DNA of 64,000 nucleotides, taken from contig CAJINV010000004.1 in NCBI GenBank assembly GCA_905178155.1, positions 5,268,258 through 5,332,257 on the forward strand, given 5' to 3'. Source of the stretch: Amoebophrya sp. A120 (Eukaryota > Protista > Dinoflagellata). Shown piece by piece: positions 877 through 63,800 of the stretch (the stretch's first letter is position 1; each line of letters begins with the position of its first letter). The notes under the pieces were generated by a model. That model did not search any database. It had not been told where the DNA came from and saw only the letters and a program-made list of their open reading frames with translations. A program made the translations under genes and the position numbers.

Positions 877-3800
877 CTAGGCAGTCGTGTGCGGGTGGTT
901 TCCTGCACCTACCGCGGTTTTCCCTCCGGCGTTCGGATCAATATCCTCCTCGCCGGAGTAATCTGTTTCGTATTCACTGGACGAATCCGAGGTATTCCCA
1001 GCAAGAACGCCGTTCACCGGCACCGCAAACCCCGCCCCCGCCTATCCTGAGTAACAACGTCCCCATGACCCCCCATAGTCAATGATGGCTGGGAAAATCT
1101 CTGGAAGAATACAGGTTGAGAAGTTTTGGGATGCAAAAATGGCAAGTTTATTTTCGCCGTATTGCAGTGCAGCTTAGCAAGGAACAAAGCCGTGGACGAT
1201 GACGATCACAAAGCTATTTCCTAAATAATCCTGTACGTTTAACATAGCATTAAAACTTCCAAAACACGATTGGGGGTAGGGATGCCTCCCTTGCCCTTGG
1301 GTATGCGCATTACAAGTACTGCTGTACCCTGTCATTCTCATTGCAAATCTGCATGACAACTGTGGTTCGGGAACGTTTTTACACGACAGGATAACGCCAG
1401 TCTTCGGTTTACATTCCTCACGGCCGGTGTCGAGGAGTAGGTCGTGCCCTCGCGATCCACTTTTTCCCGTTGCGCGGCCATATCAAATGCAAATATGTCT
1501 GGGTCTGGAAACTTGTAATGCTGCGCTGGGAATAGTGAATACTGATACTCTGTAATGCACAGGCAAGCATGACAAATATCTGCGCTTCTTTCTGTTGCGT
1601 TTTTCGCATGACAAACTGCGTTTTTGGATGACAGGCAAAAGGGTCTCTTCTTAGACACGCATCACAAGGAGCTTTTTGGTCATGCTAGACAAGCATGACA
1701 AATCTCGCAAGCTTCCATACGCAGACCCAGGCATATTTGCATTTCATAGGCCAGGAGTTTGCGCAAGTCCTCCTTCAGTGCGTTGTTCTGTTTTTGTTCC
1801 GGTGCAGAAGTCAACATCTTGGTCAACGAGCGCGACGGCGAGGTCCGTTGCTGCGAGCTAAATCGCGTCGGAGTCTGACCGGCAAGAAAGTAGTTCGCAT
1901 CTTGTTCGTCCCTACCGTCGTTTTTATTACCCAGCAAAGCATTCCGCCCGACCCAACCCTTGCCCGGGACCCGCTGCCAGCTGCCGTGATAGACAGATTT
2001 GGTTTCTTGGTTGAGTTTGCTACTTTTGCATTTGCTGTTTGAAGATAATGCATTGATGTTACTACTACCTCCAGCAGGTTCTTGGGGGTGCCGAGCGTCC
2101 GACGGAGTCGGAACGGTGGAGACCGGGGACGCGCAGCTGGACGAATGGTTGCAGTGGCTCTTGTTCCGCCCAAAAGGAGGTTCTGCGTTACAGTAGTTCC
2201 TCGGTGTAGTTGTAAGAGCTGCAGCACCGGTACTACGCCCCATGGACGTCGTCCTCGATGTGTTTAGAAGAGTTTTATTGCACGCCGTCCCACCAGCTGC
2301 TCCTGCAACCGGATGAACTTCATCTCTGCTGGTTGTAGTTGCTTCCTGGGTTGAAGTGGAGGTAGAACTAGAACCTGTTGTATGATCGTGTTTATTAAAC
2401 ACATCTTCAACACTACTCGTTCCTTTTCGCACCGCCTGGTCGAGCTCGCGTTCTTCCTGTAGTTCCCGCTCCTGGTGGCCCTGGTTCGCCGTGGCCGTCC
2501 CCGTGTCTGTGTCACTAGAATTATTAGAACCCAGGTCCGAAGAACAAATCTGCAGTTGGCTCACTCGCGATCGACGGGTGAGGGAAGTAGAGGAGCTGCT
2601 TGTGTAGTTTGTTCCAGGGAGATGAGTTGATGCGCTAGCGGTATTTTCACATTGTTGCCCTTGTTCCTCTCGTCGTGGTCCCGTTGTGCTTCTACTGCCC
2701 GCAGGAGTTGTCCTGGGAGGACTTGGACTTGCCACGGCCGCCGGGAGGTGTTCGTCACAACTGCTCAGGTCGTCAGTGGATAGTAGTACTTCGGTCCCAG
2801 GTACTACTGGCGTGTCGTTTTTTCCGTCCCCGTCCGGGGACGGAATATAATTACAGACCGTCCCGCCTCCCGCACCCGACGACACGCGCGTGGTGGTCTC
2901 TGACTCCGCGCCGGAGAAGATCATGGGCCGCTCGGGTCGGCTGTCAATGTGCATTTGGTCTCCTCCAGAGGGGTCGGATGCATCATCCTCCGCATCTCCC
3001 ACCCGCAGATGCAGTTGATCCAGCCCCTTCACCAGGAACCCAAAGTCCGCCTCGTTACGAGCGCGGTCTTCGACTTGTTGTTTGTGCGCTGAGGCTGCAC
3101 GCGGCTCGTTGTTGTTTTCATCTCCTGCCCGTACTTCTACTCGCGGTTGCTGATCCTCGTCGTGGTTCTCGACCGACACCGCTCCTACGCCCCCATCTTC
3201 ATGTGTTGTAGCAGGAAAAACCGCGGCCCTCGAGGACTCCTGCAGGCTCGTTGTGTGAGCCTCCTCCAGCATCACAGGAGCCTGTCTATTTTCCACTTGG
3301 TGCATCAGCTTCTCATAGTTCTTCATCTCTTCGGACGACGACTGATCCTCTGTCCGCTCTTGCTCGGTTCGGTCGAAATAACTGGAAGCGTCGTCAAGCT
3401 GTTGACCAACGTGGTCCTCGGGACTATCTGCTGTGCCGGCTGGTCGCGTCACATTAAAAATGTGGTCTTCAGATGAAAACAAGAAGAGATCACCTTCTTC
3501 TCCATCGACATTGTGGTTGTCCATGTCCTCCTCTTCCGGCTCACTGCTGGGACGCAGCTCCATCGGGTCTTCAAAGAGCTCGTCTGCTAAGTCCTCGATG
3601 TCGCCCGCGACCGCGGCGGCGGTCCCAATCACGCGAGGCTTGTTGTGCATGACAAGTGACTTCATTTTGTTCACGGCTTGTCCGCTTGGGTCATTACTAG
3701 CCGAGTCTCTCCCCCTGAAAGACGTCCTTGACGAACAGGATCGCGCGGAGAGGCAGCTCTAAAATGCAAAAGTGTCTGGGTCTGGAAAAATGCAACTTGT

Positions 3801-4868
3801 GCTGCTGCATTTGGATGTCTAAAAAATTCGTGTTGCATGAGCAGCAAAAGGAGTCTAATTCTTGCTACGCGGAGGGGGCATTTGTCATGCAGAATAGGCA
3901 TCAAGAATCCCTCAGAAAACCTGTGATGCTAGGGCATGCATCACAGACATCATGGCTCACGCAAACCGTGCATGACAAGTCTCAGAATCTTCCAGACCCA
4001 GACATTTTTGCAATGTATAGCAGCTGTGGTAGGTCGACTGGGAGACCGAGCGCTGCAAGGATTGCAAAAATTGGCTCTGCCGTGGTTCTGCGCTGCCGGG
4101 GGAATAGGTATCATCATGCTCGTCGGATTTTTTAGATGAAGTGCCGGAATTTCTTTTTATTTCCAGGTCGTCGTTCAACCTCGCTTCCATCTCGCTTCGC
4201 TTGGTGAGGAGCTGTGCCGTCAAGACAACGGGAGATGTGGCTGTGGTGCCTGTGCCACGACTTCGAACATTTTTAAACCATTCGGTACTAGTACATTCGG
4301 TAGTACTTCTACTGGTCCTCGCGGGCGTTCTCTGATCTCTTGCTGTGGTCTCCACCTCTTCTTCTTGAAGATGCTCCTGCAAGTGCGACGCCGGGGGCGC
4401 TGGGATCATTTCACCTTCTTCGTAACCCACGACGACTCCTTGTTGTGGTCGTCCTCCATGTCGAGATCTACAAGCTGTTTTGGTCGTTGTAATTGATGCT
4501 GCTGTCTTGTTTTCATTGTGGTCTGTCGCGACCGATGTTGGGACGGAACGACCGGAAGGTTCTTGTTCATCTCGACCTGGCCGCCCGGGCGAGGCAGCTC
4601 GCACAAGAGGGAAAGACAAGGAGGGTATTAATGTTGTAGTTTCACATTCATCTTCTTCATCGACCATAAAGATTTTTCCCATCAGCAAAGCAGTTACGAG
4701 GACCACGGCGGTAGTTGCAGTTCCACCTACAACGCAGCACGAAGTAGATTTCGACCGCACTTTTCCGCTGCAGGAGCTTCGAAGAGGACAACCTCGCAGC
4801 CGCGCCGGCCTTCCACACTCCTGCGTTGTTGTTCTCAATGAACAAGACGACCAAAAATTCCAGGACAT
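877..4868 (-). CDS. Spliced hypothetical low-complexity (S/T/E-rich) protein, ~1030 aa, 3 introner introns, hydrophobic segment near the N-terminus
   Basis: ORFs 3957..4889, 1680..3674 and 1338..1658 join in frame when elements 3758-4019, 1481-1748 and 1043-1393 plus one 5-bp repeat each are removed (3096 nt). First ATG at 4868, stop TAG at 877-879. Start is tentative. Confidence 0.7.
1043..1393. mobile_element. Introner family B (TIR TATCCTGAGTAAAAACGTCCCCAC)
   Basis: TAT..ATA, DR ccgcc/acgcc. Confidence 0.85.
1481..1748. mobile_element. Introner family A (TIR TATCAAATGCAAATATGTCTGGGTCTGGAA)
   Basis: DR ggcca. Confidence 0.9.
3758..4019. mobile_element. Introner family A
   Basis: DR gcagc; left end TCT. 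Confidence 0.9.
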
Positions 4869-6522
4869 GCCGGCTCGGGTCGGCGACACAATTTCGGTTC
4901 TTGATGGACGACAACAATGATGTTGGGCGGTGCTCGAGCTTGATGTTCTCGTGAGCTTGAGCAGTTCCAGTTCCGAGACTATATTACATTCCGGTTCTTC
5001 CGGTCAGCGCCAGTGCGGTCTATCAGAGCCCGAGGAACGAAGCGTGCTCCCGTACTTCTCGGAAGCTATTTCGGAAAAAAATCTGATGAAAATACTTAAC
5101 GTCATCATGTTTACATGATCTTCATGTTCATGCAAGTTAACCTGCGACTGCGAGCGTCTTCATATGCACTCGATCATTTTGTCGAAGAACAATAATTTCC
5201 TCCTGCTGATTTTTCATCTTCGCCCCACAGGCGCTCACCGACGAGGAAATGATCGCGCTTGTTTGTTCCCGTCCCTTATCGTAGGTTTGCTCCTCTTGCT
5301 CTTCTGAAATGAGAAAAAGATGGACATTTTTAGGGCCTTGAACATTTGATGCCGTGCCCGGGCACGGAAAGAAAGAAAGAAAGAAAGAAATCGACGGACG
5401 TAAATTGTACTGCAATAGTACTGCAATGCTTGCTCAATTTCAGGACTTCCACTGCCAATACAACGCCACAAAGATCAAAATAGCAGTACTGCAGAAGCAG
5501 CTGAAAATTGATTAAGTAATTCTTTCTTACTTTATTTCTGGTGACGCCGAAAAATTCAATTTTATTCTACATCTTCTCCAATGATTAATTACATTTGTGA
5601 TACAAAAATCCGTGGCTCTTTCTACCATCAAACTTGTACAAGAATAGGAAAAGCAACTAAAATGGAATAGGTACGAATAGCAAATGCATTTTGAAAAAAA
5701 ATCCGTCGCCGGCCATTGCAGCAATTCAAATCAAGATCAACAGAAACAGAAAGTGTTGTAAGTACGGAATTCGATACTTAGAATTTATTTGGCTAGGTCG
5801 TGTCTCACTTCTGGAGGTTTTTTCTTACGACAACGTGATTTTTTCTAAACAGATTTCTCGCGCGCCGGACGGCGAAAAGCTACTAGGTTCTTCAGGATTG
5901 AAGCTAGAGAAATGAAAATTGTCAACATTGATAAAGACAACGCGGAAGCGTTCGCGTTGCTGCAATAAAGAAACCATATGTATAGAAGTCCGTAAACCAG
6001 TCTTGTTTCAAATCTACATTGAGGAGTGCTAGTGTACTGGGTACTACGGGGCTTCTACTTACGCAAACAGTAAGACAGACACGGCCAAATTCGCGTCTTC
6101 GATTTGAGTTGCAAGCATTGATTTCAAGTATTCAGAGACAGAAATGAAGTTGTGAAGTATTAAAAGTGTAAGAAGATCATCGGGCTCGTCGATCATATTT
6201 GCTTTGTACACGAAAAGATGTGCAAAATTCATTTTTTTCGCTAGTAGATGATGAAAGAATGGATTGATACATTACGAGCAAAGACGAGGTCCGTTGCCTT
6301 TTGGTGTTAAGGACCTTGGAGGCACAATCGTGCGCCCGCCCATAGGCTAGATATACTTTTACTTGTTCTACTTGAAGTTGCTATAAACTGATTCCAATTT
6401 GTCCTCTATTGGCCGTAGCTGAAGCTGTGCCTTCGGGGAACATGAGTTTGAGGTAAAAATTGTGATTATCGCATGCCTTCCAGCTCGGAGTTGGATCGGT
6501 AAAACTAAAAATCTCGATCCTT

Positions 6523-9500
6523 TTAAAACCCCGTGGTCACATTATGAAAGTGCACAACTCCCACTCCCCCTCATTTGTATTGCGTGAACAGCAATACAAG
6601 CGTCAGCAAGAATACGGGTTTTGCGTGACAAATTTGGAAAGGAGTGTAGTGTTATTTGGGCTGCCACAACTTGTGATGCAAACAGTCCAAAGAGCCAAGG
6701 CGTCAATTAGGTATTTTGCATTACCAATGAGGGGGAGGGGGAGTTGTGCACTTTCATACACATCCGTGACGGTGTAGTTGATCTGGTACCCAGTCGACTC
6801 GTAGGCTTCGTTGCTGTAGAACTCGATGAAGAACGCGTTGGATTTTTCCGTGAACAAAAACTCGTTCGTTCGGTTCTCCCCGCACAGCAGTTGCCTCGGC
6901 GGCTGCCCCACGCTGCCCCGCCAAACGCCCTTCCAGATCAGAACCCGGTCGAACACGCACGACGGCGAGAATTCCAAGGTATCAAATGCAAACATGTCTG
7001 GGTCTGGAAAATTCGAACTTGTATGTAATGCTGGTCTTGCATTCCTGTGGAATTTGTATTGCATGACCAACAGAAGTAGTCATCATAGATACGTCATACA
7101 GAAACGCAGTTTCCCATGCGGGCTGCGCATAAGCCAGAGTCTTTGAAAGTTGTCATGCTTAGCTGCATTCGGAAGTGTTTCGAACATCCACACTTTAGCA
7201 TCACAAGTTCTTGCCTGACGCAGATATATTTGTATTCCATACACGTCCATGAAATCCAAATTAAAGTGAAACATGTAGTCCCGTGTCTCGAACGTGGTCA
7301 ATTCGATGTAGCACGCCGTGTTGGGGTTGTACCGCTGCTGCGGGTTCGCCGATTTTGTGTGGGACAAAAGCCCGCTCCACCGGTCCCACCCGATGGTCTG
7401 GTTGGTCAAGGGGTCTACCCGTAGCGGGCGGATCAACCGATGCCGGTCCACCTGAGGCGACGCCAAGCACGGCGTCGGGTCGTTCATCACCGTGCGGCGG
7501 ATCGGGTACCCCGGAAAGGTCTCGGCGGAGTGGAACAGGAATTGAGGCGGAACAATCTGTAAGCAGGTACAGGATAGAAGACCGTTGACGAGACAAAGAA
7601 CGTAGAATCATGATGAAAGTCTCGATCTATCTGCAGCTCGCTTCTTCCACAGAAATGCAAATGCCAATGCGCAGAGGACATTACCAGATCTTCGATGAGG
7701 TGGAAAATGTAAATGATCCAACATCAAACCTAACCGACAACTACAAACTCTCCTTTGATATATATGCATTATACCTGCTCCACGCCGTCGGGCGTCTTCC
7801 ACTTCAGCCTGAGAATGGCAGCCCGGGTCAAGTACGGCTCTCGGTAATCCAGGTTCCTCGCTACGTAGTACTGGTATTTCACTGAAAGCGCGTACAGCTG
7901 CTCCTTTGTCAGGTAGACCGAACGGGAGACAAACGTGTCAAACAGCTGCGTGGTGCCGTTAACGAGCTGTTTTTATAGTAATGTTAGCTTTTCTTTTGGT
8001 GTAGAGACACTTTTTCGGAACATGAAGATCATCACTTGAGCTAATATTCTAAAACAATTGAAATTTATAAAATTACCTGGTCCCGATTCGGATCGGACTC
8101 CACGCCGAACAGCAGCGCGCCCTCCAGGAAGACCTGCGCCTTCCCAAATACCTCCAACTTAAACTCATAGGTGCCCGAGACACCGGGAATCAAGTGGCCC
8201 GTGAATTCCTCTTCATCGTAGTCGCTGGTGTCCTGCGCAATCATGTAGCGCACACTGTCCACCACCTCGGCCCGGGCTCGGGGGTCGTTATCAATTGCAA
8301 AAGTATCCGTATCGTACTAGTGGTAATTGAAATTACAATTTTCAAACTAGCAAAACACGATGACAAGAATAAATGGACTTGTTCTATTCCATCGACTGCG
8401 TTAAAAACTAAAAAAAAAGATTTGCGCGTAGCACGAGTACGATACAACTTTTGCACAGGATACTCGTTGCGGTCTAGCAACTCGGAACGGTAGGTGGCGC
8501 GCAGCTTCAGACCAAACTGGCGCTCGAACCCACACGCCATCTACAGAATTTTTGTGTTTTTAGATAACGTGCAATTCTAGAAAAAGTTTATTTTCCGAGA
8601 TTTTCTTTTTTGCAAGTAAGTAAGTACCTCCTATGAAAGTAGTAATTTCGCCTCGCTCTACTTCTGGCCGCACGAGAATACAAAAAACGCCCAACGTACC
8701 GGCACGAAATTTGGCCTGATGGTCCTCAATCCGAGCCCGTCTTCCGTTTCCGTGAAGTTCACACTCGGATCCATCACCGCGGTCGTGTAGTCCGAGGCCA
8801 CCCACTATGCAAGCAGAAAAAACTGTTTCACTGTACACTTTTGATGCATGATAGAATGGAACACAGACGCATTTGTCTTGCAGCTACATATGCAACTGCA
8901 AGACATTCGCTTTCTCGCATGGCAAGTTTTCGTTTTCACGGACGCTGCGTGACGCAAGTAACTCACAAAATCCTTACGGGTAAAACTACGCTTTTTTCTC
9001 ACGATACCCACCGGCGCCACTTTCCCGGAAAGGTACTGTCGTCCTGTGCGGTGCAGACCAGCTCCGGGTCCCCGTACACCATTTCTTTGCGAATCGGACA
9101 GGACAAGCTGAGGCGCGCCCCGTAGGTGAAATACAGGTTTGGGTCGAAGTAGGTCAGAATGTTCTTGTTTTCCAAGTCCTCCATGTTTGGATCGATGGCC
9201 GGCGCCGGGCAGAAATTGCTGATCAGGCCGCAGCTGTCCACGTTGGGGATACTGGCCATGGTGGTGGGGCAGTTGGTCTGCGGACCGATGATGTTGGACC
9301 AGAAGCCCTGTTATAAGAGTGCGCATCAACGAACTCCCCCTCATTTGTCATGCAAAACGCCTTCTAAAAATCCACCCTTTGCATGCCCTGTGGCGCTGCT
9401 TGCGCGACAGATTGTGCCCGAACAAGCGGAAACAGCACTGGAAGCGGTCGCGAATTTGTCATGCAAAAGCTGCACTTGTGCCAGCACTTGTGTTGCTGTG

Positions 9501-54500: not shown

Positions 54501-56963
54501 TTCTGCTAGCTTGCAACTTCGTCCTGTTCTTTGTGCGTTTGCTGTCAGAAGTGGTACAACTGTCAGCGTAGTGGCGGTCGTAGTTTCGTGTACCAGCACC
54601 CAAAGCCCCGGCAAGTTTTTGTCGGAGGTCTTGTTGATCTTGTTTTTGCTCCCTTCTACTTCCGCTTGTTCGCTTCGAACTGCTACAACGACCCGTGGAC
54701 CACGACCATAATCTACTCGACCATAATCTACCTCTGGGACGTCGACTTCTTCTGCACGAGCAGCAGGACCTTCGGCTCCTCTTCTGATTCGCAGGACGTA
54801 AAAATTCCGCACCTCCTTGTTCGGGATCTGCTGGAGGCAGAAAGCGTCGCGAAGGCCGCGAATAGACCTCCGGTGCTCGTCGTCCTGAGCAGGGTGAAAT
54901 TATATTAACCGTGCTTCGCTGCTGCAGCTCTGTTGACGCGACGAGGTCCACCGCCTGCTCCACGAAGTGGAGTTCTTCTTGTTGCACATCTTCACGTCTA
55001 CCACGGGTTGTTGTACTCGTGTTAAGCAAAAACTCGGAAGCAGCAAAACGCTTATGACGGCGATAAAATATTCATTTCAAAAATATTCACGGAGCCAAAA
55101 AAAAAATTTTTCGGCCAGTGGCCGCCCAGCCGGGCCGAAGCGCGCCGCGCCATGCGTGAGGCATTGCAGAGCGCTAACGCGCCTGCGATGCCCCGACGCA
55201 GGTACTACCCGGAAGTCGCTTGCTGGGCCCAGTCGGTCGATGGCGCTCGAGAGTCAGATCCTTCAAACACACAGGGGACGGCCTGCGCGCCGGCGACATG
55301 CAAAGCCAACTTCCACAAGTTGCAGCATTCGTAGCATTCAGGCGGCAGATCACGGTCTCAAAGCTTTGAAGAAGCTGCCACGCTGCGCTGCCTTGCCCCT
55401 ACAGGCGTTGCTCGATCCCGACTGGACTCGAGCACATCCCGGTAAGTGGCGGGCATTAGAGCAGTTGCTCTAGACGGCCACACTTTGCCGAGGCGCAAAC
55501 CCCTGCAAAAGACGGGGTCGCCTGGCCTTTACCAGGATGCTTCTGCTGGCCAAGTCTATAGAAAAGCTCAGCGACTTTGTGTGCTGCCAAAGGCCGCAAA
55601 GGTTGCAAGCAGAAAAGAAGCACTTTTTTGACGTCCTCAGAGAAGGTATGAATATTTTTACTTTTTGGGCTGGTCTGGAAGGAGCATAGCAGTGGGATAC
55701 GCAAAAATATTCACCTCCCCAAAAAACGCCTGTTTTTCCCAGAAAGTGCGCACTTTTTTGGCGTTTTTCGCTGTCGCAAATTGCGCAGATGAATATTGGA
55801 TAAATCAAGTGGGAGTAGCTTCTGCTAATAAAAACGGAAACGCAGTGTCGTCGTGATTCGAAAATGAATATTGAGAAGCGAAGCGGGCGAGAGGTGTCCG
55901 CCTTGGTGCAAAACAGCCACTGCCGGCGCTGTGGCGCATTTCAGTTCAGCCTTGGCCTTTACAGGAGTAGCGCTTGCGTCTGGGCGAAGTGGGCCTTTCC
56001 AGATTCTGCAGAAAAACTCCGCGGGGTCCCCGCAAAGCGAGGGCGCCCAGCCACCTAGCAAGCAATCCGCCAAAGCGCGCGCGACATCGTTTTCTTTAGA
56101 GAGGAAGGAGCACAGTTGAGGCGTAGGCCTTGATATCTCTCGGCCCTGGAAGTCGCCGAACGCGTTTCGTGCGCTTTCTGGGCCAGGATTTCTACATGAA
56201 GCGCCGCAGCGAAGCTCTCGCGCGCGCATGTCGCTGAGTCTTTTTTCTAGGCGTTCACTAATTGCGCAAAAAAAATTTTTTTTCGGCCCTGTTGCACATC
56301 TTCACGTCTACCACGGGTTGTTGTACTCGTGTTAAGCAAAAACTCGGAAGCAGCAAAACGCTTCTCAGCTGGAACTAGTATAGAGCTCGCCGACGCGACA
56401 TTTTCACTGCTCTTGCCGGTCCTCAAATTGGTCGACGGAATAAAGTCGAGCGTTTTATTAGTAGAATCAGTGGTCGTGGCAGCAGCTCTTGTCGTCGTGC
56501 TATCTTTCTCTACTTGTAGCTCCTGTTCCACCTCGGGCAGATGAAGTACTAGCAGTTCTTTTTGTAACATCTCATCACCTCGCCTCCGCGCGTTGATGAC
56601 GGAGGCCCATTTTTGCACCGAGGAAGAAGGTATCGAGTGCACAAATGTCTGGGTCTGGAAGGTTGTCACTTGTGATGCTGTCTTTGGAAGGTAAAAAAAA
56701 TCTGTATTGCATGACCAGCAAGAGGAGTTCAGTTTAAGCTACGCGGAGTGGGCGTTTCTCATGCGGAATACGCATCAAAAGGCCCTTGAAAAATCTGTGA
56801 TGCTAGGTCATGCATTACAGGGGCCTCATGGGCGATGAAAAATATGCATGACAAACGTAGCAATCTTCCAGACCCAGACATTTTTGCAGTTGGTAGAAGG
56901 CGACGAGGGCGGACAGGACGGACGACGTGCCGGTGCTGCCAGGGGTTGTACTAGTGCCGACAT
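6523..56963 (-). CDS. Giant multidomain extracellular/adhesion-type protein (~8,300 aa by hand count): LNR, EGF, furin-like/Calx-beta, filamin-like Ig, PA14, sushi/CCP, LamG-like, Thr-rich mucin, CUB
   Basis: GC-rich exons between 73 TIR elements and 4 GT-AG introns translate to recognisable domain motifs. Checked junctions are in frame and the summed exon length (25002 nt) is divisible by 3. Ends ...YQINYTVTDVTTGF* (TAA 6523-6525). ATG 56963 is tentative. Not every junction was translated. Confidence 0.7.
6543..6758. mobile_element. Introner family C (TIR TATGAAAGTGCACAACTCCC)
   Basis: DR cacat. Confidence 0.9.
6759..7556 (-). CDS. Giant gene exons: C-terminal CUB domain
   Basis: YNPNTACYIEL...LDFMD(L/V)EFSPSCVFDRV...FFIEFYSNEAYESTGYQINY, split by element 6980-7241. 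Confidence 0.75.
6980..7241. mobile_element. Introner family A
   Basis: DR caagg/cacgt. Confidence 0.85.
7557..7774 (-). other. Canonical GT-AG intron
   Basis: cag|gtataa ... cttacag|att; keeps the PA14 frame. Confidence 0.75.
7775..8288 (-). CDS. Giant gene exons: PA14-like domain
   Basis: FTGHLIPGVSGTYEFKLEVFGKAQVFLEG / YALSVKYQY...LRLKWKTPDGVEQ / IVPPQFLF joined through GT-AG introns. Confidence 0.65.
7967..8076 (-). other. Canonical GT-AG intron
   Basis: cag|gtaatt ... aaacag|ctc; in frame. Confidence 0.75.
8289..8462. mobile_element. Introner family D (TIR TAT.....TGCAAAAGTATCG)
   Basis: DR gtcgt/ctcgt. Confidence 0.85.
8541..8699 (-). other. Canonical GT-AG intron
   Basis: ccg|gtacgt ... 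ctgtag|atg; in frame. Confidence 0.7.
8806..9006. mobile_element. Introner family E (TAT....GAAAAAA..GT, heterogeneous)
   Basis: DR cccac. Confidence 0.85.
9312..9546. mobile_element. Introner family C
   Basis: DR cctgt. Confidence 0.85.
9568..9780. mobile_element. Introner family E
   Basis: DR cacaa; near-identical to 29998-30207. Confidence 0.9.
9842..10120. mobile_element. Introner family B
   Basis: DR gcgtg. Confidence 0.9.
10210..10369 (-). other. Canonical GT-AG intron
   Basis: agg|gtatag ... ttccgcag|gta; gives QGYFLLPLD...QCKMGY. Confidence 0.75.
10705..11007. mobile_element. Introner family A (divergent)
   Basis: DR gcttg/gtttg. Confidence 0.8.
11026..11282. mobile_element. Atypical/degenerate non-canonical intron
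   Basis: TAC..ATA ends, short IR gtcgtgc/gcacgac; removal plus 5 nt restores the frame. Confidence 0.6.
11475..11801. mobile_element. Introner family F (TIR TATC..AAGGAAAAATCCCCC)
   Basis: DR cgtgg. Confidence 0.9.
11802..13091 (-). CDS. Giant gene exons: sushi/CCP-like repeats
   Basis: ORFs 11754..12287 and 12506..13054 contain C-P...C..GY....G.....C...G.W patterns. Confidence 0.75.
12247..12525. mobile_element. Introner family A
   Basis: DR cgtag. Confidence 0.9.
13092..13352. mobile_element. Introner family A
   Basis: DR actcg/acgtg. Confidence 0.85.
13353..15228 (-). CDS. Giant gene exon: LamG/concanavalin-like segment plus sushi-like segment
   Basis: ORF 13348..15294: HMAYSWD...ALFINGEEV...ISRVRFYD; LQCNAGY. 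Confidence 0.6.
15229..15552. mobile_element. Introner family G (TIR TATGAAAGCCTCAG...AATCCTCAAAGTGGA)
   Basis: long TIR, DR agcgc. Confidence 0.9.
16259..16409. mobile_element. Introner family D
   Basis: DR ggtgt. Confidence 0.9.
16448..16708. mobile_element. Introner family A
   Basis: DR ccggt. Confidence 0.9.
17456..17722. mobile_element. Introner family A
   Basis: DR ccagt/ccaat; opposite orientation to 16448-16708. Confidence 0.9.
18583..18847. mobile_element. Introner family A
   Basis: DR gttct. Confidence 0.9.
18848..20425 (-). CDS. Giant gene exon: Thr-rich mucin-like and Cys-containing region
   Basis: ORF 18625..20397 with a long poly-Thr run and many N-x-S/T sequons. Confidence 0.75.
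20207..20312. repeat. (GTN)n trinucleotide repeat encoding poly-Thr on the minus strand
   Basis: gtggtcgtcgtcgtggttgaacttgtggtcgtgg... run. Confidence 0.85.
20426..20687. mobile_element. Introner family A
   Basis: DR gcttg/acttg; inverted near-copy of 18583-18847. Confidence 0.9.
21221..21448. mobile_element. Introner family A
   Basis: DR cgcta/tgcta. Confidence 0.85.
21494..21759. mobile_element. Introner family A
   Basis: DR caagc. Confidence 0.9.
21760..22553 (-). CDS. Giant gene exon: sushi/CCP repeats
   Basis: ORF 21748..22566: GSSAAVSCQAGY, GESVVITCMEGY. Confidence 0.75.
22554..22790. mobile_element. Introner family C
   Basis: DR cgcgt/tgcgt. Confidence 0.85.
22906..23191. mobile_element. 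Introner family B
   Basis: DR tgtcc. Confidence 0.9.
23341..23602. mobile_element. Introner family A
   Basis: DR ccatt; left end CAT. Confidence 0.9.
23709..23928. mobile_element. Introner family E
   Basis: DR ctacc/ctgcc. Confidence 0.85.
24004..24259. mobile_element. Introner family A
   Basis: DR cgtcc. Confidence 0.9.
24260..25029 (-). CDS. Giant gene exon: LamG/pentraxin-like domain plus sushi
   Basis: ORF 24177..24995: TWCVWVK...WQHLCYVW...EFYIN...PRLYNYRLTEDQI. Confidence 0.7.
25030..25355. mobile_element. Introner family F
   Basis: DR acccg/aaccg. Confidence 0.9.
25457..25742. mobile_element. Introner family B
   Basis: DR tggtg/cggtg. Confidence 0.9.
25983..26131. mobile_element. 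Introner family D
   Basis: DR ctggt. Confidence 0.9.
26410..26637. mobile_element. Introner family C
   Basis: DR ccgga/cagga. Confidence 0.9.
26679..26948. mobile_element. Introner family A
   Basis: DR caact/caagt; left end CAT. Confidence 0.85.
27348..27616. mobile_element. Introner family H (TIR TAT.....GCTCAGGTGTTACAATCTCAAACGTT)
   Basis: DR ttgca. Confidence 0.9.
27846..28114. mobile_element. Introner family A
   Basis: DR cacga/tacca; frame check supports this boundary. Confidence 0.85.
28174..28425. mobile_element. Introner family H
   Basis: DR cagca/cagct. Confidence 0.9.
28472..28727. mobile_element. Introner family A
   Basis: DR cgccc. Confidence 0.9.
28728..29402 (-). CDS. Giant gene exon: three sushi/CCP repeats
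   Basis: ORF 28675..29373: GSRAKFECNVGF, GSIAQIRCKPGF, NSEVFFECLPGW. Confidence 0.8.
29403..29577. mobile_element. Introner family I (TIR ...GCAGGCAGGTCATATTTGTA)
   Basis: DR gttgc. Confidence 0.9.
29629..29880. mobile_element. Introner family H
   Basis: DR cacca. Confidence 0.9.
29998..30207. mobile_element. Introner family E
   Basis: DR ctttg. Confidence 0.9.
30270..30419. mobile_element. Introner family D
   Basis: DR ggcac. Confidence 0.9.
31040..31325. mobile_element. Introner family B
   Basis: DR tcttc. Confidence 0.9.
31636..31869. mobile_element. Introner family A
   Basis: DR tgcac. Confidence 0.9.
32075..32388. mobile_element. Introner family J (TIR TATTACA(A/G)TGAAAAATGCCCC)
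   Basis: DR cgtct. Confidence 0.9.
32389..32908 (-). CDS. Giant gene exon: PA14 domain
   Basis: ORF 32356..32883: RLTGYLYV...TDGGINFWLDG...GYTPIRLEYF...LQLYWSG...IPSTSLY. Confidence 0.8.
32909..33165. mobile_element. Introner family A
   Basis: DR tgttg. Confidence 0.9.
33246..33528. mobile_element. Introner family B
   Basis: DR tgagt. Confidence 0.9.
33589..33861. mobile_element. Introner family A
   Basis: DR cgcga/cgtga. Confidence 0.85.
33862..38930 (-). CDS. Giant gene exons: filamin-like Ig repeats
   Basis: QQDGRYSLFFTPQRLGFYYLEVKIN, DNLDGSYHVKYT, ITAKDSYN, LQSKDENN motifs across several exons. Confidence 0.65.
34633..34873. mobile_element. Introner family K (TIR TATGG..TTCTCAAATGTTAC..TCTCAACTGTTAC)
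   Basis: DR tcgtc. Confidence 0.9.
35005..35286. mobile_element. Introner family A
   Basis: DR gtgca; right end GTA. Confidence 0.9.
35353..35632. mobile_element. Introner family B
   Basis: DR agccc/agcac. Confidence 0.9.
35699..35975. mobile_element. Introner family A
   Basis: DR ggacg. Confidence 0.9.
36031..36282. mobile_element. Introner family A
   Basis: DR caaac/ccacc. Confidence 0.85.
36352..36558. mobile_element. Introner family L (TIR TAT......AAAAAAGTTC)
   Basis: DR gttca. Confidence 0.85.
36884..37157. mobile_element. Introner family B
   Basis: DR ggctc/ggttc. Confidence 0.85.
37214..37382. mobile_element. Introner family D
   Basis: DR taaag; left end CAT. Confidence 0.85.
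37631..37890. mobile_element. Introner family A
   Basis: DR acgcc/aggcc; right end CTA. Confidence 0.85.
37945..38205. mobile_element. Introner family A
   Basis: DR cccgg/cacgg. Confidence 0.85.
38931..39183. mobile_element. Introner family A
   Basis: DR ctgca. Confidence 0.9.
39663..40270 (+). repeat. Tandem array of ~68-bp unit (GGCCACGCCTACCGACCTACCCACCCACCTGCCTGGTGGGGGGGTGGGG...)
   Basis: about 9 imperfect units, directly visible. Confidence 0.9.
41555..42090 (+). repeat. Second tandem array of the same ~68-bp unit
   Basis: unit starts at 41572 and 41640; same order of variants as the first array. Confidence 0.9.
43442..43955. mobile_element. 514-bp MITE-like element, 24-bp imperfect TIR, 9-bp TSD GATTTTTTT (Mutator-like TSD length)
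   Basis: ggttgttatacaggaatctcaacg ... cgttgagatacctgtagtacaacc; TSD 43433-43441 and 43956-43964; subterminal TCTCAACG repeats. Confidence 0.85.
43762..43859. repeat. Perfect 62-bp GC palindrome followed by degenerate CCCTAAA telomere-like repeats
   Basis: 43762-43823 equals its own reverse complement; then ccctaaaccccaaatcctaaacccgaaaccctaaacc. Confidence 0.9.
44077..44361. mobile_element. Introner family B
   Basis: DR ccacc. Confidence 0.9.
44463..44714. mobile_element. Introner family H
   Basis: DR tggga. Confidence 0.9.
44924..45201. mobile_element. Introner family B
   Basis: DR tgcgg. Confidence 0.9.
45264..45591. mobile_element. Introner family J
   Basis: DR cgccc. Confidence 0.9.
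45916..46216. mobile_element. Introner family B
   Basis: DR cagcg. Confidence 0.9.
46293..46571. mobile_element. Introner family B
   Basis: DR aggtt. Confidence 0.9.
46629..46891. mobile_element. Introner family A
   Basis: DR gttgc. Confidence 0.9.
47184..47467. mobile_element. Introner family B
   Basis: DR ggaac. Confidence 0.9.
47521..47782. mobile_element. Introner family A
   Basis: DR agatc. Confidence 0.9.
48417..48682. mobile_element. Introner family A
   Basis: DR tccac; right end GTA. Confidence 0.9.
48683..49276 (-). CDS. Giant gene exon: furin-like Cys-rich repeats and Calx-beta start
   Basis: ORF 48655..49236: CxxC repeats followed by GVFEFESPRYHVFQDSTYIDVLVVR. Confidence 0.65.
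49277..49545. mobile_element. Introner family A
   Basis: DR tgtcg. Confidence 0.9.
49546..50184 (-). CDS. Giant gene exon: tandem EGF-like repeats
   Basis: ORF 49400..50305: CHPNCIHGTCIAPDLCHCDAGWKGPHC and further repeats. Confidence 0.85.
50185..50484. mobile_element. Introner family J
   Basis: DR ctgga. Confidence 0.9.
50684..50845. mobile_element. Introner family D
   Basis: DR aggtt/acgtt. Confidence 0.85.
51086..51363. mobile_element. Introner family B
   Basis: DR gttgg; right end CTA. Confidence 0.9.
51364..51680 (-). CDS. Giant gene exon: LNR/Notch-like module
   Basis: ORF 51361..51687: MADGFCDRSNN...CFFDGGDCC. Confidence 0.75.
51681..51948. mobile_element. Introner family A
   Basis: DR gcagt. 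Confidence 0.9.
51998..52217. mobile_element. Introner family C
   Basis: DR ggttc. Confidence 0.9.
52218..55053 (-). CDS. Giant gene exon: long S/R-rich low-complexity N-terminal region ending in a hydrophobic signal/anchor segment
   Basis: ORF 52213..55029 (938 aa) ends ...FCAALYFLGLFLHLVSVCCDFALAA then enters Cys-rich sequence. Confidence 0.6.
55054..56289. mobile_element. 1.24-kb insertion of unknown class flanked by a 74-bp direct duplication of coding sequence
   Basis: 54980-55053 is identical to 56290-56363; peptide LNTSTTTRGRREDVQQ appears in both ORF 56247..56669 and ORF 52213..55029. Confidence 0.75.
56631..56895. mobile_element. Introner family A
   Basis: DR gaagg; right end GTA. 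Confidence 0.9.
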
Positions 56964-57899
56964 TATTTCTACAAGGATCTTATCACTTTGATGCTTGTCC
57001 TTGTTTGTTGCAAGATGAAGAACCCCGCTCCTTTTTGAAAAGCAAGTGGTTTCTTACTTACTTACCCCAACAAGCAGGACCTAGCTACGACAGAACCTCC
57101 ACAACCCGTGAAGCTCCTGCTGTTGCTTTGCATCTGTGCAGCTGCCCATGTTGATCCCACGTCGCCCGTCCAGATTATAACTGCCGATCGCGTGGTGGTC
57201 TTCTCCAAAAGCGGCGGCCTGAAGCAGGACCACCTGCACGTCCTCGCTCCGCCCCCCACAACGGCCTCCACGCCGGGTGTAGTGCAACAAGAGATTGACA
57301 CACGGATGAAAACAACCCGGTGACTGATAGCTGGTGCTCTGGCCCAACAACAACGAGCAGAACGACAACGACCGCCTCCACCGATCTCCTGATATAATAA
57401 TTTCACGATCTAGCACAAAAGAACTACCCAGGCTGCATTTATTTTTGTTGGGACAAGATCTTCAAGTACCTGTACCACGACGGGCACATCAATAAAATGA
57501 AAATGCGAGAAGAACGAAGTAGAAGAAAAAGATGCAATAAAAACCGATTCACACGATCTTCCAAGAATGTTGAACTCGGAAAACAAATCAATCTTTGCCA
57601 AAAATTATTTCTTCAGTAAAACTCGGCGCAGAAGTGTCTTTGTAAAAAAGCTTCTGTCGTCTGGCCACCACCAGATTCCTCGAATGGAGTCCGCTTACGT
57701 ACTTGGTCTAGTTCAACAGCCCACAGACGAACTGCATCGATCTCGTCCACAAGAATCGATATAGTACTTTATTCATTCTAAGTTGTTGTACAACTTGTGT
57801 TTGTAGTATTTATTACTTAGCACGGAGCTGCAGCACGCCCCTGCGTTCTAAAAATAATACTTAAACTGCCAGTAAACTTTCGGAGTACAGGACTACAAC

Positions 57900-60800
57900 T
57901 TACAGATCATTCCTGTCTCTTGCCGCCGTCAGAGCCCGGCGACTGTTGTCTACGATGGCGTCGATGCGAAGCGCGAGAATGTGCAGCACGTGTCCATTCC
58001 CAGTGCCGATGCGGTGCTTGATGTTCATCGTGGCCCCACTGGAATATCGTAGGAACCGGTAGTGGCTGGTGCAACCATTGACCACGTAGATGTGGCTTTC
58101 GCGCTTCTTCGGTGCTGGCGCCATGTCGAACGTCTCTCCGCTGGCTGCCATCTCCAGTTGCAGCCCGCCCTTCCGGTGGCCCCAGCCCTGGTCCTTCCAG
58201 TCCACAAAAACGCGCAGCCCCAGGACCCGGCCCGCCGGCAGCACCACCTCCGCCGCCGTCCCGTTCACCAGCAGTGGGCGAAAATCGTCGAAGAAGTATA
58301 GCTTGCAAATATGTCTGGGTGAGTTGTGACGCATGTCAGTGACTAAAAAGTGCACTGTAGAAGTGCGCCGCCAAGCATGACAAGTTTTCTCGTGCTTCTG
58401 TGCTGCGTATTCCTAATGAGAAACTGCGTTTTTGCACGACAGGCGAGAGAGGCTGCTTCTAGCTGCCACGCAATATTACAGAGTGCGGAGAAGTCATGCC
58501 AGACAAGCATGACAGGTCTCGCAATCTTCCAGACCCAGACAGACACATTATATTTGCAGTCGATAAGAAGGGGGGGCCGTCAATGTAAAGCTCGTGGGCA
58601 TTGCTCACCGACGCAAACTCGAATATCAAATGTAAAAATGTCTGGGTCTGGAAGGGTGCCAGCCTTGTCATGCAGGTTTTCCATGACCCATGAGGTCTGG
58701 TATGCGGGACATAGCATGACAGATTATGTGAGAGTTCTATCATGCCTATCCTGCACGGGAAACTGCCTCTCGATTACGTCAAAAGTGGACAGCTTTTGGT
58801 AACAATGCAACACAGATTTTTACATGCTTCAGATTTAGCATGACAAGTTGCTTTGTTCCAGCAGACCCAGACATTTTCGCATTTGATATCGAACAGCTTC
58901 ACACCATAGTGGGCGAGGTCGTAGTAGGTGTCCAGATTGTCCGCCGACGGCACGCGCCGCGCAACGGCGTCGAAGCCGGCCAGCGCGGGCGGGTGGAGGT
59001 CGGCCTGATCCTCCAGTATCTGGATCTCTCAAAAGGAAAAATCCCCCCTCCGCCCCATATCGGAAACGAAACTTGTGCCGCTGCATTTTTTGAGAAGTAC
59101 ACAACTCGACTTGTATTGCTAGAAGGCCAACAAGAGCCGCAGCTGTGGCCTCGTTTATTGCAGGCCATTGGTCATGCTGTTTCCCACTTCCAGCTGCCTC
59201 CTGTCGTAACATACTGAAGACGCAAGGCTTTCCCACGCCACCCGGCACTACAGCGCGCATCTTTTCCCTTCTAGCAATGACATTGTGACCACAAATCTGC
59301 ATCACAGATTTCCGTTTTGATATCATGGGAAGGAGGGATTTTTCTTCTTGATAGGATCCCGCACACGTTTAAAATCTCCGTAGCGCCGGGCGCTCCGACG
59401 CGCGCCGTGTCCCACGCAACGTAGAATTCCCGCACAACCCGCCCCAGCAGGGGGATTATCAAATGCAAATATGTCTGGGTCTGGAAAATTGTAATGCTAA
59501 AAGTGAATGATAGACGCACTGCAATGCGCAACTATGCATGACAAATTTCTTGGCTGCCATGTCTTACGTATTCCGGATGGCAAAGTGCGTTTTTGCATGA
59601 CAGGTAAGTGGGCCTTTTCGTGCCTATGCAACACAGATTCTCGAGTCATACCAGACAAGCATGACAAACTTGCATTCTTCCAGACCCAGACATTTTTACA
59701 TTTGATAGGGATGTCCACGTAGCGAAAGGCGGGGTCGTACAGGGTGGCCACATTCACGGGGGCCGTCACGGAAGCATCCGCGGGGTGGGCCACGCTTTGA
59801 ATGCGATCGGGGTGGGCCGGGTCCAGGTTGCCCAGCGCCGTCTCCTCAGAGGCATCGTTTCTCACATAGACTCGTGCTTTCTTGAGACGGTTCTCGCGCC
59901 CGCTTATTGCGAGGAAAAATTAAATCCCCCCCTCCCCATACAGACGAGGCACGCCTGCGGCGATTCGTATGGATTGCAAAAGTGTCTGGGTCTGGAAGAT
60001 TGCCAGGTTTGTCATGCAGGTTTTCCATAACGCATGAGGTCTGGTATGTAGGACATAGCATGACAGATTCTGCGAAGCCTTTCCAATGCCTATCCTGCAT
60101 GAGAAACTGCCTCTCGATTAGGTCAAAAGTGCACAACCTTTGGCAATCATGCAAGACTGTCTTTTGCCTGCTTCAGATGTAGCATGACAAGTTGCATTCT
60201 TCCAGACCCAGACATTTTTACATTTGATAGTTCGTTTGCAGTGCTGATTTGTGACCACAAATCCGCCCCGTCCTATGCAAGAAGGCAAGCCCACCGGCTC
60301 CGCCGCATTATACCGGCGGTTTGTGATGCTGTTGGTCCTTCAGTGTAGTCATACTGGGCGGGTATGTCAAACCCTCTCTGCTCAGGCTTAGCATATGCCT
60401 GCAGTTTTTCTACTGCAAGACAAACCGGAAATGTAGTGCTGTAAGCAAATCCAGCATCAGAAATTTCGTTTCGGTGTGGGGAGGGGGGTTTTATTTCCTT
60501 TTGGTAACGCTCTTGCCCGCCTCACTCGTGTACGCAGCCCCGTAGTTGTACAGCCGCCAAATCGCGACTGCGCGCTGCCCGCCCTCGGAATCCTTAAACT
60601 TGGCGAACCAGTAAGGTGCGCCGTCGCCCTCCGCCGAGTGCCAACAGCTGCCGTGCCGTGTCGGGTTGGGCGACATGTAGAAGGGGAGCCCCGTGCCCGT
60701 CTTATCGCGAGGAAAAATCCGCGCCGCGCCCCATATCGACGAAACGGCACGCCTCAGAAACTTTGCAATGCGGATTTGTGGCCACAAATCGCGTCTGTCT

Positions 60801-63800
60801 TGCAAGAAGGCAACTCCACAGGCTCCGCCGCATTATGCCGGCGGTCTGTGATGCTGGTGGGCCTACAGAAAAGACGTTTCTCATGCTAAACGCCTAGGCC
60901 AGCCCCTCTCTACTCAGGCGTGATATGGGCCTGCAGTCCTTCACTGCAAGACGCAACTGATTTGTGTACGCAAATCCAGCATCAGAAACTTCGTAGCGAT
61001 ATGGGGAGGGGAGATTTTTCCTTCTGATACGTCTGCGTGGTGTGTTGCGAAGCGGTCGCGTACCACCGCGGGGTCGTTTCCCCCAAGTCGTTCACGCCCT
61101 CCGAACTTATGCAAGAAAAAAACTGTGTAAGTGTAACTCTGTAATGCAAAACAAGCAAGAGAGTTACTACACCTGGCATGCCAGACAGCCATGAAGTCCT
61201 CTTTCCATGTGTGTTTTCCCATTCCCTTACAACCCACGCATGACAGTTTTTCTCTGTCATGTAGAGCAAATCTGTGATGCTGTCAGCCAAAGAAAGTTAA
61301 TACACTAACGCAGTTACTTTTTATTTTCTTGGATAGAACTTCGCCACGAGCTAAGGTCCCCCTGCCCTACCATCGGTGCGGCGCCGTTGCAGGCGGGGTT
61401 CTCCATGGAAACCTTGGTGGGGGTCGCCCCCGGCGCGCGTCGGGGCCACGAGTTTGTCCGCCGCACAAACGTCGAGGTGGTGCTTGTGCTCGTGGTGACA
61501 GGGGGTGGTGCCGCCGTGGCTGTCGGTACCGGCGTGGTGCTGGTTCTTATATGCATTGCAAAAGTATCGAAATTGTAGCAATTGCAGCCATGGCGCATGA
61601 CGAATCCCGATGCTTCAGGTTCAGCATTAAACCACCATTATAAATGCTATTTCTCTCCTTCAGAAAAGAACTTGTGACGCAAGTTATATACCAGTACGAT
61701 ACTTTTGCAAGTATGCATATGTTGACGTGACAGACAAATCTTCGTAGATCCAGATGCCACACCAGCAAAGGCTTCCGTCCAGCCCCGGACCGGAGGTCGG
61801 TCCGGCGATTTGCAGTTTGTGCAGCCACTTGTTCACCGGAACCCAGACGCCATCGGCAGCCATGACAATCCCAGACGTCATCACGGCGGTGGGGGCTTCC
61901 AGCAGGACGCCGTTCTGATCGTAGTACTCCAAGGACGCGTAGGATTGGAAATTATTCTTACAGGCATCGTTGTCCCCCCGTTTGAAAATCATGAAACCGC
62001 TAACGTAGTGGAGCGCCCCGTCGCGAAACTCTGCGGCCCAAAACTGCCTGGAGAGGCCTCCGCGTTGCAGCTTCTATCCACTGCAAATATGTCATGTCTG
62101 GGTCCTCTGGAAGATTGCAAGGTTTGTCATGCAGGTCTCGCATGGCCCATGAGGTCTTGAATGCAGGGCCTTGCATAACAAATTCTGCAGTGAGGTCTCT
62201 ATCCTCCGTATCTTCCTGCATGAGAAACTCCCTCTCCACTTGCACTTGGTCGAAGCAAGGTCGGAAGCTTTTGCTAATCACGCTGACGAAACACAGATTT
62301 TTGAATGATTCAGATTCAGCATGACAAGTTGCAGTGTTCCAGATCCAGACATATATACATTTGATAGGTTCAAACACACACTGATGTCCGAGGCGATTAT
62401 ATTGGTCCCGGACCCCCATCGTATGCAAGAAAAAAGCTGTGATGTAGGTGTAACTCTGTAATGCAGAAAATGCAAGAGAGTTACGCCTGTCATGCCAGAC
62501 AGCCACGCAGTCCTCTTCCCATGTGTGTTAGTTTTCCCTTACAAGCCACGCATGACAGGATTTTTGTTTCATGTAGAGCAACTCTGTGATGCTGTCAGCC
62601 AAAGAAAGTTACACTAACACAGTTTTTTTTCTTGGGTACCTCGAGAGGAAAAATCGTACTCCGGTCTCAGCAACACCTGCGCCGCTGTGACCCAAGCGGC
62701 GCCCGAGAATGTGGCAGACAGAGCTCGCACCGAGACAAGCGTGCCGACCATAGGCTCGGCTAGCAGGTTGCAGTCGCTCATGCGGTAGTAAACGAAGTCC
62801 GGGTTGACGGAAGGCGTGCAGCCATCCTGAAAAAGCCAACACTCGCCGTTGCTTCCTATTGAATGTAAAAACGTCGTGGCTCCCACCCTGGACTCAAGTT
62901 CTTGGAAACTTAGCAACACAAATGGTCCAAAAGCTTTGGAAGTAACGCATGGCGCATCACAAATTCTGTCAATCTTATACTTTTTATACTTATTAATACA
63001 GCATTACAAATTCCAAAACACGACGTAGAAATGTCGCTCATGCTCATGGGGATGCGCATTACAAACGTTCGCGTACCTGTACATGCAAATCTGCCTGACA
63101 AGAACTATGGGCGGGCGGGAACGTCTTTACTGAGGATAGTTCTCGTGAAAAACCCACCGCAATTTGGGGTGTTCGCGCACTGGTAGCGGCACTCGGCGAC
63201 GCTGTAAACCCGATCGTTGTAATAAATGCCCGACCCGAGCTGCTTGTCGTTCATATTCGCGCAGGCGCCCTGGAAGGTGGAGGGGCAGGAGGTCCCATCG
63301 ACGCGGGGCACGTACGCCTTACACTTTGCCTGGTTTTGCGCCATACTCCAGTGCTGCCATCCTGCCGCCGAGGATTGCGTACAGCCGTCCACAAAGTACA
63401 TAGCCTGCGCCTGCCCGTTGTTCTGGTTGCGAAACATCGCCACGCAGTTGTTGTCGTAGCCGCGGCCCCGACAAAACAGGTCGTAGTCGGTAATCTTGGT
63501 GTTGGCAACATTGGTCTGGTCCACCGTGGCAATGTCACTACCCGCGATCGCGAGGGAGTTAAATTCGTTGCACGCCCCGCCCCACACCGCGGGGCAAACG
63601 CGGCCCTTCAGCTGACACTGATTTAAGGAGTATTTTCTCCACCACGGCCCAATCCACCACGTGCAGCCCGAAGAGAGAAGATCGCACGTACTGCCTGCGC
63701 CTGTGCCGACAATGAAGTCCGCGCAACCATCCGTCATCGCGCACAGATACCGGCACTCCTCCTTCGAGTAAGGTCGGTCTGAGAAGAGACCGACCCTTTT

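Follow-up and report, generated by a model that had tools for sequence, protein, structure and literature searches.

The window analysed here, a stretch of 64,000 nucleotides (nt) of contig CAJINV010000004.1 from the dinoflagellate Amoebophrya sp. A120, carries on its minus strand an array of inverted-repeat elements, each starting with TAT and ending with ATA, which interrupt large protein-coding frames. These elements are Amoebophrya A120 introners, which have already been described and whose end grammar is already in print. The explanation favoured here, which we hold to be reasonably probable, is that they are non-coding introners with inverted-repeat, two-part transposon ends and a 5-base-pair (bp) target duplication, and that they are removed from messenger RNA (mRNA) by cuts at a fixed offset from those ends. 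The array and the frames that it interrupts are located as follows.

1481..63138, minus strand: array of 85 TAT...ATA introners, each with a 5-bp flanking duplication, most of them 149-328 nt long
11269..55071, minus strand: host reading frame, stop-free over 7,592 codons after removal of 63 elements with 5 nt each
1341..5003, minus strand: restored frame of 1041 codons, after removal of elements 1481-1748 and 3758-4019
6759..18528, minus strand: annotated A120 protein P0001, 2420 amino acids, in which 13 of 13 element junctions are removals of an element plus 5 nt
57903..63842, minus strand: window part of annotated A120 protein P0006, 1112 amino acids, in which 11 of 11 junctions are removals of an element plus 5 nt

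The elements were detected as TAT...ATA pairs with a 5-bp flanking duplication, TAT being allowed at most one mismatch over both ends. The automatic scan returned 74 elements and visual pairing of the remaining ends added nine, giving the 83 used in the statistics, while two others (61550-61719 and 59905-60506), met when an annotated protein was mapped, were excluded from the statistics and bring the array to 85. The minus strand was shown by frames or proteins for all elements except those starting at 6543 and 56631, where it was assumed. The family letters A, B, C, D, F and H denote our own end-word classes and differ from those of an earlier sequence-only reading of the window, whose claims are taken up below. 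The statistics set comprises the following elements.

Minus strand, set 1: 1481-1748, 3758-4019, 6543-6758, 6980-7241, 8289-8462, 8806-9006, 9312-9546, 9568-9780, 9842-10120, 11475-11801, 12247-12525, 13092-13352
Minus strand, set 2: 15229-15552, 16259-16409, 16448-16708, 17456-17722, 18583-18847, 20426-20687, 21221-21448, 21494-21759, 22554-22790, 22906-23191, 23341-23602, 23709-23928
Minus strand, set 3: 24004-24259, 25030-25355, 25457-25742, 25983-26131, 26410-26637, 26679-26948, 27348-27616, 27846-28114, 28174-28425, 28472-28727, 29403-29577, 29629-29880
Minus strand, set 4: 29998-30207, 30270-30419, 31040-31325, 31636-31869, 32075-32388, 32909-33165, 33246-33528, 33589-33861, 34633-34873, 35005-35286, 35353-35632, 35699-35975
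Minus strand, set 5: 36031-36282, 36352-36558, 36884-37157, 37214-37382, 37631-37890, 37945-38205, 38931-39183, 39257-44026, 44077-44361, 44463-44714, 44924-45201, 45264-45591
Minus strand, set 6: 45916-46216, 46293-46571, 46629-46891, 47184-47467, 47521-47782, 48417-48682, 49277-49545, 50185-50484, 50684-50845, 51086-51363, 51681-51948, 51998-52217
Minus strand, set 7: 56631-56895, 58297-58565, 58624-58888, 59027-59353, 59457-59707, 59968-60229, 60703-61029, 61108-61335, 62075-62366, 62422-62638, 62857-63138

The target duplication was exact at 5 bp in 58 of the 83 elements and never found at 3, 4, 6, 7 or 8 bp (0/83), a length within the 3-5 nt of the border direct repeats of A120 introners. 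The elements also share the inverted repeat starting with TAT, followed by seven weaker positions and then at least three As, and two window exons were 100% identical to annotated A120 proteins. Moreover, the element families of the window are present in another assembly and, in run X1, the summed contig depth was about 25 on bins free of elements and ranged from thousands to about 99,000 on bins with elements, a depth that gives no copy number; together these two results indicate genome-wide repetition. An Rfam search returned no match. A family B-like left end was also seen at window position 1043, with no recognisable partner.

For replication, metagenome contigs were searched with the family A pattern, which yielded 159 stretches under one assembly prefix, of which 156 loci were used; these showed no match to the window exons, and their best element identity had a median of 84%. 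The same detector returned 375 unique elements from the loci and, in the first 40 loci, 191 on the real versus 28 on the reversed sequence. Because of these 28 detections, 33 locus elements in which the internal motif was absent or positions 9-25 gave fewer than 10 of 17 matches were dropped, leaving 342. A codon model oriented 157 of the 342, and its cross-validation on 63 window elements gave 60 correct calls out of 60.

The removal of the elements from mRNA at non-canonical sites is indicated by frame restoration, by the annotated junctions and by one assembled contig. When each element was removed with 5 nt (modulo 3), 76 of the 83 lay inside frames of at least 250 codons, compared with 45-50 for the other two classes, and all 24 annotated junctions proved to be exact removals of an element plus 5 nt. 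Since an element leaves together with one copy of its duplication, the protein is unchanged. A contig of run X8, a run that the tool guesses to be RNA, leaves out 233 nt (228 + 5) at element 21221-21448; in total, the contigs of runs X3, X4, X8 and X9 provided one usable junction and one half-junction among the matches listed. The raw RNA runs X5-X7 matched elements only in part and covered no exon. A few hundred RNA reads of X6 and X7, at 88-95% identity, fell on the element interiors 23087-23163, 30331-30366, 33412-33449 and 35432-35632 and none on exons; related elements occur in abundant transcripts of these samples.

In 8 of the 20 exons scanned, the 7,592-codon frame matched EGF, PA14, filamin-like, sushi and LamG-like domains, as in a large surface-type protein. 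The annotation of P0001 begins only at 18528, inside this frame, and may thus divide the gene or cut it short; no annotated protein was found for the upstream part of the frame, for which four weak homologues were the only matches. P0006 lists the PAN_4 domain PF14295, and its paralog P0007, on another A120 contig, is 83% identical over the query exon. After element removal, long antisense open frames of 652, 877 and 967 codons also appeared on the plus strand at 26955-52626, probably as a codon-usage effect opposite a large gene.

Where the two copies of a duplication have diverged, the position of the cut can be read as k, the number of bases of the upstream copy kept in the mRNA. The range k = 3-4 was set from P0001 before P0006 was examined, and the informative sites, together with the one element that departs from the common donor, are the following.

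6980..7241, minus strand: family A element with a diverged duplication, k at least 3 (P0001)
13092..13352, minus strand: family A element, k at least 3 (P0001)
17456..17722, minus strand: family A element, k at least 2 (P0001)
8289..8462, minus strand: family F element, k at most 4 (P0001)
62075..62366, minus strand: family A element, k at least 4 (P0006)
62422..62638, minus strand: element with k at least 4 (P0006)
61550..61719, minus strand: family F-type element, cut keeping 4-5 nt (P0006)
62857..63138, minus strand: family B element, the last of the array, cut keeping 1-4 nt (P0006)
59905..60506, minus strand: element with the family A element 59968-60229 nested in it, k at most 4 (P0006)
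21221..21448, minus strand: family A element whose last duplication base comes from the downstream copy in the X8 contig, k at most 4
26679..26948, minus strand: family A element at which the frame runs into a stop unless 2 nt or more of the upstream copy remain
39257..44026, minus strand: family A element enlarged by nested inserts to 4.77 kilobases (kb), the sole 5′ end without T at position 1, with G-C at the putative donor

Because it is nested, element 59968-60229 is no splice unit of its own. With k at least 4 at three sites, at least 3 at two and at least 2 at one, and at most 4 at three sites and in the X8 contig, k = 4 is the only value that fits all. These nine annotated junctions and one likely-RNA contig thus suggest, with somewhat better than even probability, a single register in which the intron is N-TAT...ATA-NNNN. 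Under k = 4 the donors of the 83 elements would be GT (33), CT (23), AT (16), TT (10) and GC (1), and the acceptor would be AG in only 5 of 83, which is not the canonical U2 combination of a GT or GC donor with an AG acceptor. The T at position 1, which would be intron position +2, deviates in 1 of 240 5′ ends compared with 9 of 240 3′ ends (p = 0.02; 1 vs 3 in the window and 0 vs 6 in the loci), and the single 5′ exception gives a GC donor. An N-T donor is likewise found in each of the nine predominant A120 motifs of Table S4 in Farhat et al. (2021).

Two inserts were observed within element 39257-44026. One of about 4 kb, at about 39421-43393, has its own long terminal inverted repeats and an 8-bp flanking duplication, and carries two same-direction arrays of ~68-nt repeats and a short internal palindrome at 40854-40969. 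The other, at about 43449-43940, has TA-CAGG...CCTG-TA ends, which we take to be Tc1/mariner-like, and contains CCCTAAA telomere-like repeats at 43823-43857.

The two ends of an element resemble each other unevenly. Left and right ends matched in 79, 81 and 77 of the 83 elements at positions 1-3, counts that are inflated by the detection rule, in 43, 43, 56, 33 and 64 at positions 4-8, in 76, 70, 75, 76 and 81 at positions 9-13, and in 56-66 at positions 14-24; the ends were identical in 40-67% of elements at positions 4-7 versus 84-98% at positions 9-13. The mismatch rate per element was 0.42 at positions 4-8 versus 0.17 at 9-20 (Wilcoxon p = 3e-10), so the evenly spread mismatches by which the sequence-only reading had proposed that it could be refuted were not seen. 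Its claim that the ends differ near positions 4-8 and match on either side was borne out and could be refined, since the true dip comprises positions 4, 5 and 7, and it was replicated in the 342 locus elements (0.51, 0.56, 0.73, 0.37 and 0.78 at positions 4-8); the search pattern prescribed positions 9-30 at one end, so that the bias it introduces lies there and not at 4-8. Both quoted end pairs exist, the first in the elements starting at 18583, 28472, 35699 and 49277 and the second in the following element.

30270..30419, minus strand: family F element quoted in that reading, with CCTGT versus GCAAT at positions 4-8

The A-runs placed by the same reading about 9-11 nt in are real, and mostly begin at position 11 (118 of the 144 ends possessing one). 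Its statement that a U-tract always precedes AUA at the 3′ end is correct for the families that it listed but not in general: a U3 run is absent from the 3′ end of 12 of the 83 elements, 10 of which lie within the long reading frame.

It had further been proposed that the RNA forms a stem which brings the exons together, with an internal loop at positions 4-8 acting as a structure-defined splice signal. The stem is the part of this proposal that stands, as the elements are introns and, in 82 elements folded with their flanks, the predicted pair probability was 0.81-0.85 at positions 9-13, compared with 0.57-0.66 at 1-3 and 0.46-0.50 at 4-7; the shape of terminal helix, loop and stem was predicted in only 24 of the 82. 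Predicted terminal pairing dropped from 0.95 to 0.35-0.44 as mismatches rose, and in the elements with at least three mismatches (33/82) the terminal three pairs were mostly open (P 0.44, 0.35 and 0.01). Sense and antisense folding did not differ (minimum free energy, p = 0.64), and the pair probabilities were alike on both strands. In transcript orientation, the composition of positions 4-8 was equal at the 5′ and 3′ ends, both in the window and in the 157 oriented locus elements, and position 4 showed no asymmetry between C/G and G/C (15 vs 15 in the window and 39 vs 33 in the loci). No excess of G-U over A-C was found at positions 4-8 (25 vs 32 in the window and 49 vs 49 in the loci). Perfect pairing at these positions occurred in 7 of 83 window elements, four of them in the long frame, and in 45 of 342 locus elements; the perfectly paired introns of the window include those starting at 15229, 37945, 38931 and 46629. 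Two elements illustrate this.

15229..15552, minus strand: element perfectly paired at positions 1-13 and without an A-tract, removed in the annotated protein; a counter-example to a required loop or U-tract
38931..39183, minus strand: family A element in the long frame whose ends are complementary at 25 of 25 terminal bases

Mismatch number did not differ with placement in coding sequence (p = 0.34 and 0.47), in a weak test whose unoriented class is mixed, and showed no relation to age, judged by how far conserved sites or the duplication have diverged (p = 0.27 and 0.24). The loop as a splice signal is therefore unsupported: there is no asymmetry, no G-U excess and no link to context or age, and perfectly paired ends occur in introns. 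Two further candidates were tried and rejected. A branch-point A pairing with position 3 was invariant at the window 3′ ends (0 vs 6 deviations in 83, p = 0.03) and failed in the loci (4 vs 5 in 157), and a G-type end on the 5′ side as a GUAUG-like donor showed no orientation bias in either set.

Inside the elements, the motif TGTNWTGC or its complement GCAWNACA occurred 316 times in 21,037 element bases versus 17 times in the 42,963 bases outside. None of the 82 short elements, whatever the family, lacked it. Most copies point inward, with peaks 30-50 and 70-80 nt from each end, and the motif is a candidate binding site of a transposase or of a splicing factor. The end variants at positions 4, 5 and 7 form a few linked types (CAAAT, GCATT, GGATT, CAACT and CAAGT), with r = 0.74 between positions 4 and 5, and no fixed left and right end types per family were seen in the window. 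Among 29 family A pairs with close interiors (both halves at least 0.8), 17 conserved end positions differed by 1%, compared with 38% for positions 4, 5, 7, 10, 14 and 15, which is near the 45% of random pairs. Position 14 of family A covaries positively between the two ends (45 vs 90 expected mismatches). Gene conversion of interiors with the resident ends kept, or an exchange of ends, would explain both the randomised positions and the covariation between ends.

The 4-8 mismatches are thus likely to be inherited end variants of a non-autonomous transposon with terminal inverted repeats (TIR) rather than an RNA loop signal. TAT, the variable positions 4-8 and the conserved positions 9-13, with the same pattern on both strands, would make up the two-part end of a DNA transposon in which, by analogy, the terminal TAT may be the cleavage tip and positions 9-13 with the internal TGTNWTGC repeats may be protein-binding sites. 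Positions 4-8 would act as a tolerant spacer whose left/right difference was inherited from the founder ends and reshuffled against the interior, and the mobiliser might be an integrase-like DDE transposase such as that of A120 family 38. In the RNA, the long predicted end stem probably joins the intron ends, and a modified spliceosome would cut at a constant distance from them, 1 nt ahead of TAT and 4 nt beyond ATA. The first T would then take the place of the +2 U in a GU donor, and position rather than AG would define the acceptor. Stated as a rule, to which we give slightly better than even chances, tens of thousands of hairpin introns would be measured by a ruler: the 5′ cut would fall one base before UAU, only the +2 U being read, and the 3′ cut four bases past AUA with no sequence requirement, while the six end positions 4, 5, 7, 10, 14 and 15 would be a variant pool swapped against interiors. 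With ruler splicing, a 5-bp-duplicating insertion in either orientation becomes a perfect intron.

Several observations weigh against this explanation. The register comes mainly from transcript-guided gene models (BLAT/Gmove) rather than from reads, T1 is one of several positions at which an asymmetry was looked for, and the paralog P0007 carries the residue expected for k of at most 3 at the 62075 junction. G before the 5′ TAT (91/240) did not differ significantly from the mirror position (p = 0.11), and AG at the putative acceptor is enriched in the loci (22/157) and not in the window (5/83). Farhat et al. described splice sites as variable relative to the hairpin, with the border position unknown (PMC7789003), and eight of the nine acceptors in their Table S4 start with A, for which a cut 1 nt past ATA, or the placement chosen by the aligner, is a better account than a random NN acceptor. 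A model that leaves 3 nt more in the mRNA is also stop-free; yet this candidate, an intron ending 1 nt after ATA, was ruled out at all 24 annotated junctions and by the X8 contig. No transposase was found in the window, where the open reading frames (ORFs) of one long element, read by eye, look like repeat translations, and the protein-binding and cleavage roles rest on analogy. Finally, in 180 in-register elements of family A, mismatches at positions 4, 5 and 7 exceeded those of random end pairing (320 vs 285, P = 0.004), an excess of unlike ends that would also arise from selection for imperfect pairing.

This last result favours the sequence-only reading in family A and not elsewhere: families B (29), H (13) and C (12) had fewer mismatches at positions 4-8 than random pairing, their ends being more alike than chance, and D (25) was equal. 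The counts for family F, into which family A ends had strayed, were left out of this comparison. A loop closed by UAU/AUA and followed by a U-tract, selected as a splice signal in either orientation, would account for the strong and replicated dip, the anticorrelation of the family A ends grows after stratifying, and a signal independent of orientation need not show strand asymmetry. Nevertheless, such a model appears improbable, since perfectly paired elements exist in window and loci and show no significant deficit against chance in family A (32 vs 34.8), the loop is unconstrained in size and sequence (0-5 mismatches) and its geometry seldom predicted, and the 10 in-frame introns without a U-tract and the lack of a coding-context effect also speak against it. 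Founder ends that differed left from right fit the data better than a selected loop.

A weaker RNA model assumes slight selection in favour of mismatches at 4-8, since a frayed stem base would leave intron positions +1 to +8 available for pairing with U6 and U5; it is unlikely, though less so than the loop. U6 pairs with the intron at +4 to +6. Under k = 4 the TIR positions 4, 5 and 7 correspond to intron +5, +6 and +8; the predicted opening of the terminal pairs with more mismatches and the scarcity of G/G end pairs in family A (11/180) also agree with fraying, as does a spliceosome apparently without U1, whose small nuclear RNA (snRNA) was undetected in A120 (PMC7789003). On the other hand, coding-placed and other elements are alike, the effect is confined to one family, and founder left/right asymmetry gives the same counts. 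It is also quite doubtful that the elements are removed outside the spliceosome by a structure-cutting endonuclease and a ligase, as proposed for euglenid introns, the 1- and 4-nt stagger being the enzyme's geometry. The fixed offset from the stem, the absence of an acceptor consensus and the release of euglenid hairpin introns as circles and not lariats (PMC11282704) would suit this route, whereas the strand-specific +2 U with its GC exception matches spliceosomal donor rules, and A120 is reported to possess nearly all spliceosomal proteins and U2, U4, U5 and U6 (PMC7789003).

The fixed-offset explanation bears on how A120, apparently without U1 snRNA, splices its non-canonical introns, whose published borders were left within the direct repeat. 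If true, the single register N-UAU...AUA-NNNN reduces the seemingly diverse splice motifs to one rule and explains the harmlessness of insertions in either orientation; moreover, if the 4-8 mismatches are not a required loop, one candidate splice signal is removed. No published register or loop for A120 introners was found in the available parts of the literature, including PMC11282704, PMC12787238, PMC12005148 and PMC11453091, and the single cut register and the six near-randomised end positions are new as far as this literature goes.

Among known systems, the closest are the A120 introners of Farhat et al. (2021; PMC7789003), whose text gives an inverted repeat of TAT, seven less-conserved nucleotides and at least three As, direct repeats of 3-5 nt (5 bp in the legend of Fig. 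S19) and elements of ~240 nt, and whose Fig. 4 legend already proposes a hairpin joining the exon ends. Organism, end motif, direct repeats and hairpin are the same, with no difference in kind as far as that text goes; it contains no within-element mismatch profile, single register, TGTNWTGC motif or hypervariable end positions, of which Figs. 3 and S19-S25 may show part. Euglenid nonconventional introns (PMC11282704) resemble the window elements in their non-canonical borders, TIR stem joining the ends and repeats like a target-site duplication (TSD), and differ in being excised as circles and in their CAG/CTG motif at +4 to +6 and -8 to -6, which is absent from the end composition tables of the window elements. 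IS2, of the IS3 family (PMC3299598), shares an outer cleavage domain, an inner binding domain and left/right differences near the tip, but it is bacterial and its end differences are fixed and functional, whereas those of the window are polymorphic among copies. IS3EU/GingerRoot elements (PMC10045372) share the TA..TA termini, but their TSD is usually 6 bp, a length found in none of the 83 elements. According to the accessible text of Gozashti et al. (2025; PMC12130899), most of the A120 families covered here are TIR DNA elements, and fam38 is a TIR DNA family with "5-bp TSD, TA/TA Termini" whose ORFs are similar to long terminal repeat (LTR)-retroelement sequences. Fam38 is ~810 nt long with ORF remnants, whereas the window elements have no coding capacity, and the two are likened here by their description; with the same TIR DNA class, TSD length and termini, fam38 is a plausible source of the mobilising enzyme.

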